Source: a virus | Lineage: Duplodnaviria; Heunggongvirae; Uroviricota; Caudoviricetes | Virus record (IMG/VR): IMGVR_UViG_2657244940_000005 | Length of the DNA: 14,144 nt | Reading direction: 5' to 3' (one strand) | Shown here: positions 532 through 6,769 of the stretch, piece by piece | How positions within the stretch are numbered: position 1 is the stretch's first letter | Layout: each line of letters starts with the position of its first letter | The notes under the pieces: model-generated | Told to the model about the DNA's origin: nothing | The model's input: only the letters and a program-made list of their open reading frames with translations | Database searches by the model: none | Program-made: the position numbers and the translations under genes

Positions 532-759
532 ATGGCTGATGCAATGGATCTCGTACAGCAGCGCGTTGAAGAAGAACGCCAGCGTCATATCCGTGCTGCC
601 CGCGCCAAAACGCCGGGCGTGTCCCGCGTGCTTTGCATTGAGTGTGAAGCAGCAATTCCGCCAGCACGCCGCCGTGCCATTCCTGGAGTGCAGCTTTGCA
701 TTACCTGCCAGGAAATCGCAGAGCTGAAAGGCAAACATTACAACGGAGGTGCTGTATGA
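532..759 (+). CDS. DksA/TraR-family C4-type zinc-finger protein (phage early protein)
   Basis: 75 aa with CIEC…(17 aa)…CITC, the CxxC-N17-CxxC arrangement of TraR/DksA zinc fingers; such genes sit upstream of gene A in P2/186-like phages. The stop overlaps the Dam start (ATGA at 756-759). Confidence 0.8.
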
Positions 760-1613
760 GCACCATCCTGAAATGGGCGGGAAATAAAACTGCCATTATG
801 TCCGAACTGAAAAAACACCTTCCTGCTGGCCCGCGACTGGTTGAACCTTTCGCGGGTTCCTGTGCTGTGATGATGGAGACGGATTACCCCAGCTATCTTG
901 TTGCGGATATTAATCCTGATTTAATCAACCTCTATAAAAAGGTTGCTGCTGATTGTGAGGCGTTTATATCTCGTGCCAGAGCTTTATTTGAGGAAGCAAA
1001 CAGGGAGGTGGCTTATTACAACATAAGGCAGGAGTTTAATTACTCCACTGAAATTACTGATTTCATGAAAGCGATATATTTTCTGTATCTCAATCGTCAT
1101 GGTTACCGTGGGTTATGTCGCTATAACAAGAGCGGGTATTTCAACATTCCCTACGGTAATTATAAAAATCCGTATTTCCCTGAAAAAGAAATTCGCGCAT
1201 TTGCAGAGAAAGCCCAGCGGGCAACGTTTATCTGCGCCAGCTTTGATGAAACGCTGGCGATGTTGAAGGCGGGGGATGTGGTGTATTGCGATCCGCCGTA
1301 TGACGGTACGTTTTCCGGCTATCACACTGATGGTTTCACTGAAGATGACCAGTATCACCTGGCATCCGTTCTTGAACATCGGTCATCAGAAGGACATCCG
1401 GTCATTGTTTCTAACAGTGACACATCCCTGATCCGTTCGCTGTATCGCAATTTTACTCACCACTACATCAAGGCAAAACGCAGCATCGGCGTAGCAGCTG
1501 GTGAGAGTAAATCTGCAACAGAAATCATCGCTGTTTCTGGGGCGCGCTGCTGGGTGGGATTTGATCCTTCGCGTGGCGTGGATAGTTCTGCCGTGTATGG
1601 AGTGCGTGCATGA
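756..1613 (+). CDS. dam: Dam-type N6-adenine DNA methyltransferase (D12 class)
   Basis: ATG at 756 with GGAGG 6 nt upstream; N-terminal SAM-binding motif ([11 protein letters not shown]) and catalytic DPPY motif ([12 protein letters not shown]) in the order typical of Dam-family enzymes. The six-frame ORF begins at 696, but the RBS-supported start is 756. The stop overlaps the A start (ATGA at 1610-1613). Confidence 0.9.
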
Positions 1614-4024
1614 GCCATGCTGATATGAACAACTGCAGCGGCTTTAACGAGGCCGCCGCAGCATTCTCATGGAACAGCCCGAAAAAGGCTATTAACCCTT
1701 ATCTGGACCCGGCGGAAGTTGCGCCGGTTTCTGCGCTTTCAAACCTGATCACTCTGTACGCTGCCGATAACGAGCAGGAACAACTGCGCCGCGAGGCACT
1801 GAGTGATCAGGTCTGGGAGCGTTATTTCTTTAATGCATCCCGTGATCCTGTCCAGCGCGAAATGGAGCAGGATAAGCTCATTAGCCGGGCAAAGCTGGCG
1901 CATGAGCAGCAGCGTTTTAATCCGGACATGGTCATACTGGCGGACGTTAACGCCCAGCCTTCCCATATCAGCAAGCCGCTGATGCAACGTATTGAATACT
2001 TCAGCAGCCTGGGCAGGCCAAAGGCTTATTCCCGCTATTTGCGTGAGACGATTAAGCCATGTCTGGAACGACTGGAGCATGTACGCGACAGTCAGCTATC
2101 CACTTCTTTTCGCTTTATGGCAAGCCATGAAGGGCTGGACGGCCTGCTGATCTTGCCTGAAATGAGTCAGGATCAGGTGAAACGCCTGTCTACTCTTGTC
2201 GCTGCGCATATGAGTATGTGTCTTGATGCCGCTTGTGGTGATTTGTATGCCACCGATGATGTTAAGCCAGAAGAAATCCGCAAGACATGGGAAAAGGTGG
2301 CAGCAGAAACCCTGCGACTGGATGTCATACCGCCTGCGTTTGAGCAACTCCGCCGGAAAAGAAACCGCCGTAAACCCGTACCCTATGAACTCATTCCGGG
2401 TTCGCTGGCGCGTATGTTGTGCGCCGACTGGTGGTATCGGAAATTGTGGAAGATGCGTTGTGAATGGCGGGAAGAGCAGTTGCGTGCTGTTTGCCTGGTC
2501 AGCAAAAAAGCATCTCCCTATGTCAGCTATGAAGCCGTGATGCATAAACGTGAGCAGCGCCGTAAGTCGCTGGAGTTTTTCCGTTCTCATGAACTGGTGA
2601 ACGAAGACGGCGACACGCTGGACATGGAGGATGTGGTAAACGCCAGCAGCAGCAACCCTGCGCATCGCCGCAATGAGATGATGGCCTGTGTTAAAGGTCT
2701 GGAGCTTATCGCGGAAATGCGCGGTGACTGCGCCGTTTTCTACACCATCACCTGTCCGTCACGTTTCCATTCCACGCTAAATAACGGCAGGCCCAACCCG
2801 ACCTGGACAAATGCGACGGTAAGACAAAGCAGTGATTATCTGGTCGGCATGTTTGCTGCATTTCGTAAGGCGATGCACAAAGCCGGATTGCGCTGGTATG
2901 GCGTGCGGGTGGCTGAGCCGCATCATGACGGCACAGTTCACTGGCACCTGTTGTGTTTCATGCGCAAAAAAGACCGCCGCGCCATTACTGCATTGTTGCG
3001 TAAGTTTGCTATCCGTGAAGACCGCGAGGAGCTGGGTAATAACACGGGGCCACGCTTTAAGTCTGAGCTGATAAACCCGCGCAAAGGAACGCCGACTAGC
3101 TACATCGCGAAATACATCAGTAAGAACATTGACGGGCGTGGTCTGGCTGGCGAGATCAGCAAGGAAACGGGTAAATCTCTGCGTGATAACGCTGAATACG
3201 TTAATGCCTGGGCGTCTCTGCATCGTGTTCAGCAATTCCGCTTCTTTGGCATTCCGGGGCGTCAGGCTTACCGTGAACTGCGATTGCTGGCTGGTCAGGC
3301 GGCAAGGCAACAGGGTGACAAAAAAGCAGGTGCGCCGGTACTGGATAACCCGCGCCTTGATGCCATTCTGGCTGCAGCTGATGCTGGTTGTTTTGCCACC
3401 TACATCATGAAGCAGGGCGGCGTACTGGTTCCCCGTAAATATCACCTCATCAGAACCGCTTATGAAATCAACGAAGAGCCGACCGCCTATGGCGATCACG
3501 GCATTCGTATTTATGGCATCTGGTCACCCATTGCAGAGGGTAAGATCTGCACTCATGCAGTGAAGTGGAAAATGGTTCGTAAGGCCGTTGACGTTCAGGA
3601 GGCGGCAGCCGACCAGGGCGCTTGCGCCCCTTGGACTCGTGGCAATAACTGTCCCCTTGCTGAAAATTTGAACCAACAAGGGAAAGACAAATCAGCTGAT
3701 GGGGATACCAGAACGGATATCACCCGCATGGATGACAAGGAGTTGCACGATTACCTGCACAGTATGAGCAAAAAAGAGCGCCGGGAACTGGCAGCAAGAT
3801 TACGCCTGGTTAAACCGAAACGGCGTAAAGACTACAAACAGCGAATTACAGAGTATCAGCGTCAGCAGCTCGTCTATGAACTGAAGTCCAGAGGATTTGA
3901 TGGCAGCGAGAAAGAGGTCAATTTGCTCCTTCGCGGCGGCAGTATTCCGTCAGGAGCAGGCCTGCGTATCTTCTATCGGAACCAGCGTTTGCAGGAAGAT
4001 GATCAGTGGCGGAACCTGTATTAA
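1610..4024 (+). CDS. A: Replication initiation endonuclease, P2 gpA family (rolling-circle HUH relaxase)
   Basis: 804 aa; HUH-type motif (VHWHLL) and paired active-site tyrosines ([14 protein letters not shown]) characteristic of P2 A / phiX174-type Rep proteins; GGAG 7 nt upstream of the ATG; position and size match P2 gene A (761 aa as I recall). Confidence 0.92.
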
Positions 4025-4177
4025 TTACGCGGGTTAACAATTCGTGCTATTAATAATACCAGGCATATCAGGCTGATGAACGTAAAAAAACGTTTTACAT
4101 CAGTAAGATTATTATATACTGTAAATATAAACAGTGGTTATACATATAGTATTGCGTGTGGTGTCATAGGAGGAAAG
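4025..4177 (+). promoter_or_regulatory. AT-rich intergenic region, putative promoter for the cargo genes
   Basis: Sharp drop in GC content immediately after the A stop (ttaattacgcgggttaacaattcgtgctattaataatacc…), a TTTACA hexamer at 4094-4099 and several TATA-like hexamers downstream. The exact -35/-10 pairing is not resolved by eye. Confidence 0.3.
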
Positions 4178-4366
4178 ATGCAGGACTATTTTTTGGAGTC
4201 TTTGAAGCTCCAGCGCATTGATTTTTTTCTTAAGCTTGTAGCGGCTAGTGAGTGTAGTGATGAAGAGAAGGGGCTGGCTCTGCAGTGGGTTTCTGAATTG
4301 ACTGATGAACTCATGGCAAAAATCAGAACCCACGAATACAACCGCTCAATGGATGTCATCAGCTGA
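4178..4366 (+). CDS. Hypothetical small protein (62 aa), probably helical, in the accessory locus
   Basis: ATG at 4178 with a perfect AGGAGG 4 nt upstream; MQDYFLESLKLQRIDFFLKLVAASECSDEEKGLALQWVSELTDELMAKIRTHEYNRSMDVIS. No family recognised. The longer six-frame ORF from 4076 lacks an RBS. Confidence 0.55.
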   Translation: MQDYFLESLKLQRIDFFLKLVAASECSDEEKGLALQWVSELTDELMAKIRTHEYNRSMDVIS

Positions 4367-4376
4367 GGTGACTTTT

Positions 4377-4610
4377 ATGCGCATTGAAATAATGATCGAT
4401 AAAGAGCAGAAGATTAGCCAGTCTACCCTGGACGCCCTTGAATCCGAGCTTTACCGCAATCTGCGCCCCCTGTATCCCAAAACGGTAATTCGCATTCGCA
4501 AAGGTAGCTCTAACGGTGTGGAACTAACCGGACTGCAACTGGACGAAGAAAGAAAACAAGTGATGAAAATTATGCAGAAGGTGTGGGAAGACGACAGCTG
4601 GCTGCATTAA
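4377..4610 (+). CDS. DinI-family protein (SOS/RecA-modulator-like)
   Basis: ATG at 4377 with GAGG upstream; MRIEIMIDKEQKISQSTLDALESELYRNLRPLYPKTVIRIRKGSS…KIMQKVWEDDSWLH resembles E. coli DinI (MRIEVTIAK…, acidic C-terminal helix with conserved W). Confidence 0.75.
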   Translation: MRIEIMIDKEQKISQSTLDALESELYRNLRPLYPKTVIRIRKGSSNGVELTGLQLDEERKQVMKIMQKVWEDDSWLH

Positions 4611-4745
4611 GAAACGTTGCTGGCGTCTGAACTTGCTTCTGGCGTCAGCAAGGTTGAACAACGAGCCCTTGCGAGGCGTTAGCTCTGTAGTGCATGTCTA
4701 TGCCGCATGAGATCGCATGATCGTTTGAGGATCGTTTTTGCTAAG

Positions 4746-4770
4746 GCCCGCCAGAACTGGCGGGCTTTTG
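4746..4770 (+). terminator. Rho-independent terminator candidate closing the rightward early/cargo transcript
   Basis: Perfect inverted repeat GCCCGCCAG / CTGGCGGGC (4746-4765) followed by TTTT (4766-4769). Confidence 0.55.
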
Positions 4771-4814
4771 CGTAGATCATGCAGGTGCATGAAAACCACT
4801 ACATAAAGCGGGCA

Positions 4815-4833
4815 GGCGTAGCGGGGATACGAG
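4815..4833. other. Candidate cos (cohesive-end) core, tentative
   Basis: GGCGTAGCGGGGATACGAG shares the GGCG-GCGGGGA core with the 19-nt P2/186 cos sequences as I remember them (GGCGAGGCGGGGAAAGCAC and GGCGTGGCGGGGAAAGCAT), and lies between the end of the A-side genes and the 3' end of Q, where cos sits in P2. The reference sequences are recalled, not checked. Confidence 0.2.
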
Positions 4834-4919
4834 CGCGCGCAACGGGGTGAAATGGTGAAAATCCGGCGCAATCTCCGGCACGCTGGCGGCTTCAATTGGT
4901 GAGGGTGGGGGAGCGGCAG

Positions 4920-4956
4920 AAAAAAAGAAGCGCCCCGCAGAATGCTGCTGGGGCGC
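4920..4956 (-). terminator. Rho-independent terminator candidate downstream of portal gene Q
   Basis: GC-rich hairpin GCGCCCCGCAG…CTGCTGGGGCGC (4930-4956) followed on the minus strand by a T-run (plus-strand AAAAAAA at 4920-4926); lies 3' of the Q stop at 4992. Confidence 0.55.
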
Positions 4957-4991
4957 TGTGAGGGGTAGTCTTGTTGTCGTGGTGCGGTGGG

Positions 4992-6047
4992 TCAGTCGTT
5001 GCGCTTGTCTTCTGTCAGTCCCAGCGTGTACGGCTCAAAGCGGATCACTTCTTCTCCAAGCCAGTCGTTAAGCTCCTGCAGTCGCTTCTGCAGCGGCATC
5101 AGCTCGTTGCGGACAAAGACGCGGCTGGCCTTTTCCACATCACCAAAGCCGCCGGTATTGTTGGGAATAATGCCCATCATCTGCGGCGGTACGCGGTGCG
5201 CTGCCATCATGTCATCGCGGCTCACGTTCTTGATGTTCAGAAACTCATCCTTTGCCGCAACCTCCGATAACGGGATGATCTGGATGCCGTCCTTTTTACC
5301 GTTGGGTGAGTACATAAACAGGTTACGGAAGTTGCCCGGCCCTTTGGCGCTTTTCATTGCCTGGCGGATATTGTTCACGTCCTCCTGATTCTGTGCTGCG
5401 TCGGTCATGTACATGATGAAACCCGCATGGCTGCCGTTGATGTAATACTTCCGGCGGAACAGCGTTGCGGACTCGTTGAGCAGGGTTGACGGGATGGCGG
5501 AGAGATAGCCGGGCAGCCCGTAAATCTCCTGGTTAATATCCGGCTCCAGCAGATGAAAGATGTTGCCCTGCGTAAATTCATAGGGCTGCGTGGTCAGGCC
5601 ATACTGCACAAACCAGTAGGTGTCGAGGTCCACGCCACGGCGTGTGTACTTCGCCAGTGCTGGCTCCAGTGAGAGAACGCCGCCGAGCCGGTTGGTGCGC
5701 TTTTCCAGATAGGCGTTACCGAACACCAGATAGTCCTGTACGAAACGGGCAAAAGCCTGCTGGCTGAGCAGGCGGTGCGGGATGTAGGTACTGCTGAGAA
5801 TGTCACGCTTAACGGCAATCGGTGAGCTGTGATGCACGGCGGCGCGATAGGTCCGCGCCAGTCCGTCAAAGCTCACCGGCGGCTCATACCAGCGGTCCAT
5901 CTGCACGCATTCCACGTAGTCCAGCAATTCGCGTCGGTCTAACACCGGCACCGGGTCGCCAAAGCTAAACGCCTCTGCCGCAGCGCCGCCAGATTCTGCG
6001 TTGTGATCCACCGCTGCGCGGTTGTTCTTGTTTTTACGTTTGCTCAT
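4992..6047 (-). CDS. Q: Portal protein, P2 gpQ family
   Basis: 351 aa, similar in size to P2 Q (344 aa), and positioned immediately downstream of the terminase ATPase region on the leftward strand. Its ATG overlaps the stop of the upstream gene (ATGA at 6044-6047). Confidence 0.9.
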   Translation of the reverse strand: MSKRKNKNNRAAVDHNAESGGAAAEAFSFGDPVPVLDRRELLDYVECVQMDRWYEPPVSFDGLARTYRAAVHHSSPIAVKRDILSSTYIPHRLLSQQAFARFVQDYLVFGNAYLEKRTNRLGGVLSLEPALAKYTRRGVDLDTYWFVQYGLTTQPYEFTQGNIFHLLEPDINQEIYGLPGYLSAIPSTLLNESATLFRRKYYINGSHAGFIMYMTDAAQNQEDVNNIRQAMKSAKGPGNFRNLFMYSPNGKKDGIQIIPLSEVAAKDEFLNIKNVSRDDMMAAHRVPPQMMGIIPNNTGGFGDVEKASRVFVRNELMPLQKRLQELNDWLGEEVIRFEPYTLGLTEDKRND

Positions 6048-6769
6048 GCCGCCTGCTCCTTGTCAGCCTGGGGCCATTCGCACATAAACAGCATTTTCCA
6101 GTCCTCCGGTGATAATTCTTTTTTCATGTCATTCAGCCATTCATCATCAAAGAGCGCGGCTCCGGTTGCGAGCGTAGCCCCGGATGCTGCAGCGTCATCA
6201 GCGGTAAAGGTCATGCAGGTAGTGCTGTTGCGGGCGATCAGATTCTTGTATTCCTGCCATGCTTCCGGGCTGGGGCTTGGGGTGGTGTAGTAGGTAGCGT
6301 GATAGCGCGCGTGCATGGACAGGCTTTTGGCGAGCGCAATCATATTTTTGGGGGAGTCAGCCCAGGCATACTCTGACACGTAGACGTTTCCATGGAGCGC
6401 GGCGGCGAGACTTTCCGGCCCGATAAAATAAATGACCGCACCGTTTGGGAGTTCCAGATGCGCTTTACCTGATTTTATTTTCCCAAGATGCGTCCAGGCT
6501 GCTGCCTCACTTAAAAAAGCTGATATATAGGTTTTGACGGTCAGGGCTGATGCCGGGGTGCAGCCCAGAAAAATCTGGTTGCGTCCGGTGTGCAGTGCAT
6601 CGTTCAGGGCTTCGTAGGCGAAAAAGAAATCCGCGCCAGCCTGACGCATTTTTGTAAGCACGCGGTTTCTGCTGCGTGCGCCACTGTTCCATTCATGCTG
6701 GTAAGCAAAGAAAGGGCGATCTACAGGCAGGCTGGCGGTGGTCATGAGGTTAGTTGGGGTTGAGTGCAT
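6044..6769 (-). CDS. Standalone terminase-ATPase-domain paralog (241 aa), an extra gene between P and Q
   Basis: Aligns over its whole length with the central ATPase core of the adjacent P protein: [50 protein letters not shown] against [55 protein letters not shown], HGN-Y-(D/S)EY-W, TPS, LFD and MCE(W/F) are conserved; by-eye identity is roughly a third. It lacks P's N-terminal ~135 aa and the entire C-terminal nuclease domain. Walker-B-like LYLDEY of P is VYVSEY here. The start overlaps the P stop (TGATG at 6767-6771) and the stop overlaps the Q start. Confidence 0.7.
   Translation of the reverse strand: [241 protein letters not shown]

Follow-up and report, generated by a model that had tools for sequence, protein, structure and literature searches.

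Are the two small genes between the replication gene A and cos of a P2-family prophage exchangeable cargo, or do they belong to the prophage's own control circuit? The question arises from a stretch of viral DNA of 14,144 nucleotides (Caudoviricetes; IMG/VR record IMGVR_UViG_2657244940_000005), hereinafter the window, where a sequence-only reading of positions 4025–4745 had suggested horizontally acquired accessory cargo. We arrive at a different assignment: with a probability of about 0.9, a Fels-2-like (186-type) P2-family prophage has its SOS-induction operon in the region 4025–4772. At the level of sequence, the LexA box, the order of the elements, and the homologies give this region the regulatory architecture of such an operon.

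Layout of the Locus

The order along the window is gene A, LexA box, a small acidic protein, a DinI homologue, terminator, and cos; the module thus occupies the interval between the replication gene A and cos, and it is transcribed in the same direction as A.

1610–4024, plus strand: replication gene A (Pfam Phage_GPA, 1.4e-127), with the stop at 4024
4025–4772, plus strand: SOS operon, the split tumA–tumB form of the tum (p95) operon of coliphage 186
4168–4173, plus strand: ribosome-binding site AGGAGG of tumA, 4 nt before the ATG, conserved in the alignment
4178–4366, plus strand: tumA-like gene (ATG 4178, TGA 4366), encoding a 62-aa acidic protein (pI 4.6) that matches phrog_698
4365–4371, plus strand: ribosome-binding site GAGGTGA of tumB, overlapping the tumA stop codon
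4377–4610, plus strand: tumB (ATG 4377, TAA 4610), encoding a 77-aa DinI-family protein and starting 10 nt after the tumA stop

Both genes described earlier, a 62-aa ORF with an AGGAGG ribosome-binding site and a DinI-like gene closely following it, are therefore present. Two other ORF versions were rejected: one of 96 aa from 4076, whose start lies upstream of the promoter and the LexA box, and one of 101 aa from 4305, which overlaps tumA and disagrees with the annotated homologues, all of which start at the equivalent of 4377. The absence of tin and old is likewise confirmed, as neither is found between gene A and the portal gene Q in the window, and the stops of tumB and Q (4992) are only 381 bp apart. 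A scan of positions 3900–5100 against Rfam yielded a chance-level match only.

The low GC content on which the cargo proposal partly relied is real, but mostly a property of the promoter: the A–tumA intergenic region has a GC of 0.333, tumA 0.444, and tumB 0.470, compared to 0.548 for the window. Horizontal acquisition was rejected as an explanation of these values, because GC is lowest in a promoter region that is conserved, and 186 and PSP3 carry the module as well.

A Predicted LexA-Controlled Promoter

The upstream region carries the signals expected for SOS control:

4094–4099, plus strand: putative −35 hexamer TTTACA, located 17 nt before TACTGT and named by analogy to p95 of 186
4117–4136, plus strand: LexA (SOS) box TACTGTAAATATAAACAGTG, overlapping the putative −10 hexamer TACTGT (4117–4122)

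The box TACTGTAAATATAAACAGTG agrees with the consensus TACTGTATATATATACAGTA at 17 out of 20 positions and is followed 41 nt later by the first ATG, that of tumA. No other CTGT-N8-ACAG site is present in the 14 kb of the window, where chance alone would give 0.15. Equivalent boxes, matching 16–19 out of 20 consensus positions, are located upstream of the homologous gene in eight out of eight related loci (nine out of nine loci compared), the comparison including the annotated LexA site of 186 and two ESSI2-like phages. The sequence-only reading had not mentioned the box.

The annotated p95 promoter of 186 consists of the −35 hexamer TTCACA, an 18-nt spacer, and the −10 hexamer TACTGT, the latter being the first six bases of the LexA box. 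By analogy, the −35 and −10 hexamers of the window form a putative counterpart of p95; the −35 hexamer TTTACA is conserved in the alignment with Fels-2, DuoHS, and SopEPhi. A generic sigma-70 scan of positions 3900–5100 called no promoter.

The 62-aa Gene

Judging from the sequence, tumA and tumB are both genuine genes. For the 62-aa ORF one could argue the opposite, namely, that it is not a gene and the DinI-like gene alone is functional: the ORF is short, searches of Pfam, NCBIfam, and PDB sequences with the 62-aa protein gave no match, and nearly all database records label the gene “hypothetical protein” (one calls it “levan regulatory domain protein”). However, the ORF is intact across phages of Escherichia coli, Salmonella, Klebsiella, Yersinia, and Cronobacter, the protein being 98% identical to Fels-2 STM2728, 98% to E. 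coli HS ECHS_RS04495, and 89% to SopEPhi orf10. The substitutions favour third codon positions and silent changes (20 synonymous vs. seven non-synonymous codon changes relative to SopEPhi), the ribosome-binding site is strong, and the PHROGs match is highly significant (phrog_698, 3.6e-38). Together with the published deletion phenotype considered below, this conservation has already refuted the non-gene interpretation, to which we give practically no credence.

The same searches qualify the earlier statement that the 62-aa protein belongs to no recognisable family: it stands for Pfam, NCBIfam, and PDB sequences, but not for PHROGs, where the protein matches, in addition to phrog_698, phrog_8554 (2.4e-8) and phrog_1993 (2.2e-3). 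These families link it to known inducers. PSP3 TumA is a member of phrog_1993 (2.7e-32), and the N-terminal 70 residues of 186 Tum match all three profiles (phrog_1993, 1.5e-23; phrog_8554, 3.4e-12; phrog_698, 5.9e-6), with Tum residues 6–44 aligned to positions 6–44 of phrog_698. Direct comparison of the 62-aa protein with the N-terminal half of 186 Tum by hhalign, based on thin alignments, gave E 2.7e-5 and probability 74% over columns 4–47 vs. 4–48; thus, the PHROG and hhalign alignments have a common register, at about residues 4–47. The shared pattern comprises an invariant Cys and, seven residues on, [LI]-A-L-x-[WL]-[VI]-[SA]-[ED]-[LI]. The 62-aa protein, PSP3 TumA, and the N-terminal half of 186 Tum are all acidic, with pI 4.5–5.1. 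Pairwise BLASTP of the 62-aa protein against 186 Tum and against PSP3 TumA revealed no similarity, and the MAFFT identity is about 19% to the N-terminal half of 186 Tum and about 16% to PSP3 TumA. Hence, the 62-aa protein is likely a remote homologue of the N-terminal half of 186 Tum, a relationship of moderate strength seen at the profile level.

Genetic data are available for an orthologue. The gene ECHS_RS04495 of DuoHS, a prophage of E. coli HS, has been deleted in-frame under the name tum (PMC12055606, 2025), and neither lysis nor viral foci were observed after mitomycin C treatment in the tum deletion or with lexA(Ind-), the response of an SOS reporter being retained in the tum deletion strain (PMC12055606). 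ECHS_RS04495 has 189 nt, is labelled “hypothetical protein”, and is flanked by the replication endonuclease gene and a DinI-like gene. The junction primers of that study, NHR24 and NHR28, have exact matches in the window at positions 4158–4180 (through the ATG) and 4364–4386 (from the TGA into tumB). These primer matches, taken with the position of ECHS_RS04495 and its 98% identity, show that the deleted gene is the orthologue of the 62-aa ORF of the window. By analogy with this literature on a 98%-identical orthologue from a different prophage, the 62-aa gene and a cleavable LexA would both be needed for induction. Moreover, the deletion keeps tumB and its ribosome-binding site, and thus TumB alone is insufficient for induction.

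The DinI-Like Gene

The assignment of the second protein to the DinI family is upheld by the match to Pfam DinI (PF06183), which scores 81.3 bits at a cut-off of 24.2 (E 6.6e-23) and covers profile positions 1–63 out of 63. TumB also matches phrog_189 (E 1.5e-29) at profile positions 71–148 out of 151, i.e., the C-terminal half of the full-length Tum profile. Its identity is 100% to Fels-2 STM2726.1 (a protein recorded as similar to PSP3 TumB), 78% to PSP3 TumB itself, and 41% to residues 71–145 of 186 Tum (E 3e-24). Relative to SopEPhi, tumB shows 22 synonymous and nine non-synonymous codon changes. In a sequence-level alignment, TumB residues 1–75 correspond to residues 1–77 of E. coli DinI (1GHH; E 2.7e-6), and with the NCBIfam equivalog for chromosomal DinI (PRK10597) TumB scores 42.7 bits, under the cut-off of 111. 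By these sequence comparisons, TumB is a phage-borne DinI paralogue (TumB type), and not an orthologue of the host dinI. As a member of the DinI family, TumB can be expected to bind RecA filaments and to influence the SOS response.

Two ESSI2-like phages carry the tumA-like gene alone, without a DinI gene before the portal gene; their tumA-like proteins are 39–45% identical (MAFFT). Hence, TumB is apparently dispensable for the presence of the LexA–tumA unit, and it may have an accessory role. It looks as if the LexA–tumA unit forms the core of the module and DinI is its frequent partner. As a speculation, and an unlikely one, the free-standing TumB, produced along with TumA, may do more than trim the host SOS response and, by acting on RecA filaments, slow the RecA-dependent repressor cleavage of co-resident lambdoid prophages or incoming phages; if true, the P2-like prophage would gain priority in polylysogens, a case of inter-phage interference.

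Terminators, cos, and Variable Slots

Downstream of tumB, folding and alignment to annotated features of 186 identify the following elements:

4617–4651, plus strand: strong hairpin directly after tumB, without a U-run (−23.5 kcal/mol, z −5.6), where 186 has its partial terminator t95a
4743–4772, plus strand: intrinsic terminator of the SOS operon (equivalent of 186 t95b), a hairpin at about 4743–4768 followed by UUUU
4815–4833, no strand assigned: equivalent of the cos cohesive end, GGCGTAGCGGGGATACGAG, matching the annotated 19-mer of 186 cos at 14 out of 19 positions within a 93-nt alignment
4921–4949, minus strand: terminator

The terminator previously placed after the pair is thus confirmed: its hairpin (about 4743–4768) is GC-rich (−23.4 kcal/mol, z −4.4) and lies, with the TTTT following it, just past position 4745, where the sequence-only reading had ended. 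Positions 4749–4840 of the window align to the t95b-to-cos junction of 186 with 76% identity (E 2e-14). The generic scan of positions 3900–5100 missed both the terminator at 4743–4768 and the minus-strand one at 4921–4949.

The window is similar to its relatives in three blocks: gene A through the stop of tumB (about 4608), about 4692–4860 with the terminator and cos, and from about 5061 on, inside Q. Two slots lie between these blocks. Slot 1 (4609–4691), which contains the hairpin 4617–4651, is empty in the window, while Fels-2, DuoHS, and SopEPhi carry additional genes there (0.8–1.5 kb, from the equivalent of about 4608–4682 to that of 4689–4692). Slot 2 (about 4844–5060), located after cos, is empty in the window as well, and in Fels-2, DuoHS, and 813R9 it holds 1.1–1.9 kb of genes between the equivalents of 4842–4860 and 5061–5113. 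One of the ORFs in slot 1 of Fels-2 has 732 nt, a length equal to that of 186 orf97, and an example of slot 2 cargo in the relatives is a protein with the Hypoth_Ymh domain.

Conservation and Distribution

The pair is retained in identical layout in all Fels-2-type relatives inspected, namely, Fels-2, SopEPhi, DuoHS (E. coli HS), and vB_EcoM-813R9. The layout is split in PSP3 too, 186 has the fused form, and the LexA box is present in all of them. The co-occurrence of the two genes suggested for checking is therefore observed in Fels-2, SopEPhi, DuoHS, and 813R9. The 756-bp cassette also matches 56 phage records (Klebsiella, Escherichia, Salmonella, Yersinia) and 1144 out of 5426 complete E. 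coli genomes, about a fifth, mostly with 95–99% identity; in 731 of these 1144 genomes, at least 80% of the cassette is covered.

These data bear on the proposal that the pair is exchangeable cargo of the gpA–cos hotspot, an uncharacterised anti-phage defence or anti-defence module. The location would suit such cargo, since the gpA–gpQ interval is indeed a documented defence hotspot in P2-like phages (Rousset et al., PMC9122126), the GC content of the pair is under that of its flanks, and, according to the annotation, plasmid-borne expression of orf97, a gene of the 186 SOS operon, blocks infection by 186, so that genes of SOS operons can show exclusion. On the other hand, the pair is conserved in each Fels-2-type relative examined, with the variable genes downstream and the breaks in similarity falling after the tumB stop and after cos, and its wide occurrence in E. 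coli genomes at such high identity is hardly that of exchangeable cargo. A search of the PADLOC defence models at E up to 1 gave no hit for the TumA-like protein or for TumB, the LexA control is the same as in tum, and deletion of the orthologue has an induction phenotype. We therefore regard the cargo proposal as very improbable, and retain, from the functions suggested by the sequence-only reading, lysogeny control and not defence. The variable part of the gpA–gpQ hotspot is the two slots flanking cos, both of which are empty here.

Nor is the module uncharacterised, given that the orthologue has been deleted as tum and shown to be needed for SOS induction (PMC12055606). The module is common in the P2 family and has been characterised before, which is one of the outcomes that the sequence-only reading had named as refuting its proposal. 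Published work describes it for 186, PSP3, Fels-2, and DuoHS, although it is under-annotated in databases. As the standard DNA-damage switch of 186/Fels-2-type P2-family prophages, the locus holds little new biology. Its value is in annotation, as the 62-aa gene can be named tumA (an SOS-induced antirepressor-type inducer), and in surveys of the gpA–gpQ hotspot, where the conserved tumA/tumB pair should be subtracted from the hotspot content.

Proposed Mechanism of Induction

In an undamaged lysogen, host LexA would occupy positions 4117–4136 over the promoter, keeping the operon off. Upon DNA damage, activated RecA would promote self-cleavage of LexA, and both genes would be transcribed. The TumA-like protein would then inactivate an immunity repressor of the 186 CI type, itself not cleaved through RecA, leading to derepression of the lytic genes; as for 186 Tum, the inactivation would most likely proceed by binding the repressor and preventing its binding to the operator. 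TumB, transcribed along with it, would not cause induction on its own; its most likely role is to adjust how strong or how long the SOS signal is, through binding to RecA filaments.

The immunity region lies outside the window, and the repressor was compared using the closest sequenced relative, vB_EcoM-813R9: the 813R9 repressor is a homologue of 186 CI with 32% identity (E 3e-34). Based on analogy with 186 Tum, binding of TumA to CI is the probable antirepressor step. Alternatively, the 62-aa protein could be an SOS-dependent inducer that does not sequester CI, acting via CI proteolysis or targeting Apl/Cox or CII; it would then have the regulatory logic, but not the mechanism, in common with 186 Tum. 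Similarity to 186 Tum is detectable at the profile level only, and the DuoHS genetics gives a requirement, not a mechanism; these points leave some room for other mechanisms. Such mechanisms are nevertheless quite unlikely, as the remote homology to the antirepressor half of 186 Tum is consistent in register, the repressor of 813R9 belongs to the same family as 186 CI, and both partners have diverged strongly (19% identity between the TumA-like protein and the N-terminal half of 186 Tum, 32% between the CI proteins). Strong divergence of both TumA and CI from their 186 counterparts is expected for partners that set immunity specificity.

Comparison With Known Systems

A parallel is provided by the Gifsy prophages, which carry a dinI homologue along with GfoA/GftA and share with the window the LexA box, the DinI homologue, and a small antirepressor acting against a non-cleavable repressor (PMC3121763). 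They differ in that dinI comes first, so that the order is reversed, and in being lambdoid phages with unrelated antirepressor and repressor families. E. coli DinI (1GHH) resembles TumB over the whole length, including the C-terminal acidic W-E-x-x-D-W helix, and is also LexA-controlled; unlike DinI, TumB is predicted to be co-transcribed with an antirepressor-type gene.

Coliphage 186 has the order gene A, p95 with the LexA box, tum, partial terminator t95a, orf97, t95b, and cos, and thus the same arrangement of a LexA-repressed promoter after gene A, with the box over the −10 hexamer, and a terminator and cos following. Its Tum is annotated as a protein of 146 aa, “expression repressed by LexA; inhibits CI DNA binding”, and combines in one polypeptide an N-terminal antirepressor half and a C-terminal DinI-like half. 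The similarity to DinI was placed in the second half of Tum by Bunny et al. (2002), as relayed in PMC3121763, and Tum has been reported to bind the CI repressor and block its operator binding (Shearwin et al., 1998, as cited in PMC3121763). The CI repressor family is common to 186 and 813R9. Compared with 186, the window has two genes, with a stop codon and 10 nt between them, and no orf97.

The split form is found in PSP3, where tumA (60 aa) is annotated as “similar to 5' end 186 tum; UV induction of prophage”, and tumB (77 aa), as “similar to dinI and 3' end of 186 tum”. PSP3 TumA and the 62-aa protein of the window are linked through profiles only, which is consistent with different immunity specificity. 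The position, the LexA box, and the two-gene split of the window are the same in PSP3, Fels-2 (STM2728/STM2726.1), and DuoHS (ECHS_RS04495/ECHS_RS04500), and from Fels-2 and DuoHS the window differs solely in missing their downstream cargo genes.

An additional terminase-like gene between P and Q

Between the genes of the terminase large subunit and the portal protein lies an additional ORF, which overlaps both adjoining genes, one at its start and the other at its stop.

4992-6047, portal gene Q
6044-6769, minus strand, additional ORF of 241 aa
6769-8535, terminase large subunit gene P

The 241-aa ORF matches Pfam Terminase_6N (1.2e-14) and has 33% identity with residues 145-368 of the adjoining P protein (E 1e-34), RQIGATF of P corresponding to RQAGADF. 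As judged from these similarities, it is a free-standing, diverged copy of the terminase ATPase domain, and it may act, e.g., as a decoy or in packaging interference. Yersinia phage vB_YpM_MLG42 and Escherichia phage 500465-1 also carry the ORF, with ~95% identity; among the matches listed, the records of Fels-2, SEN8, and Klebsiella phages lack it, and according to the annotation of DuoHS, the E. coli HS prophage, P directly adjoins Q.

Genes upstream of A and stand-alone tumA homologues

A zinc-finger ORF and a methylase gene precede the replication gene A, the latter overlapping the start of A with its 3' end.

532-759, DksA/TraR zinc-finger ORF
696-1613, plus strand, D12-class Dam-like DNA adenine methylase gene (Pfam 4.9e-77)

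Around 900-1350, within the methylase gene, GC is 0.38-0.45, which makes this the second low-GC patch of the window. Fels-2 has the same gene, and its record notes a similarity to the methylase of retron Ec67.

Two ESSI2-like phage loci (L006, 1501-1713, and L007, 1501-1725) encode distant homologues of the 62-aa tumA product, with 39-45% identity to it in the MAFFT alignment. In both loci the homologue has its own LexA box and lies by itself, without a DinI gene, between A and the portal gene; in NC_047854, the tumA-homologue ORF is unannotated.

Cargo slots, a hairpin and a terminator around cos

Alignment with relatives shows two insertion slots, 4609-4691 directly 3' of the DinI-family gene tumB and ~4844-5060 directly 3' of cos, which hold cargo genes in related phages and are both empty in the window prophage. 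The closest sequenced relative, Escherichia phage vB_EcoM-813R9, has a Hypoth_Ymh-domain gene in the post-cos slot and, between int and cI, a 1.7-kb gene annotated as "chromosome segregation ATPase" (4420-6096 of its own sequence); both are likely defence-type cargo, and both are absent from the visible part of the window. Folding gave a hairpin and a terminator in this region.

4617-4651, plus strand, highly stable hairpin with an 11-bp stem and no U-run (-23.5 kcal/mol, z -5.6)
~4921-4949, minus strand, strong intrinsic terminator with UUCUUUUUUU after a GC-rich stem (-22.4 kcal/mol, z -4.9)

The hairpin, directly 3' of the tumB stop, occupies the position of t95a, the partial terminator after tum in coliphage 186, and the subsequent segment, 4652-4683, is 94% identical to the 186 stretch just upstream of the operon terminator t95b. 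The minus-strand terminator, for which the consensus terminator scan gave no call, lies downstream of Q and is the equivalent of the tW terminator of 186.
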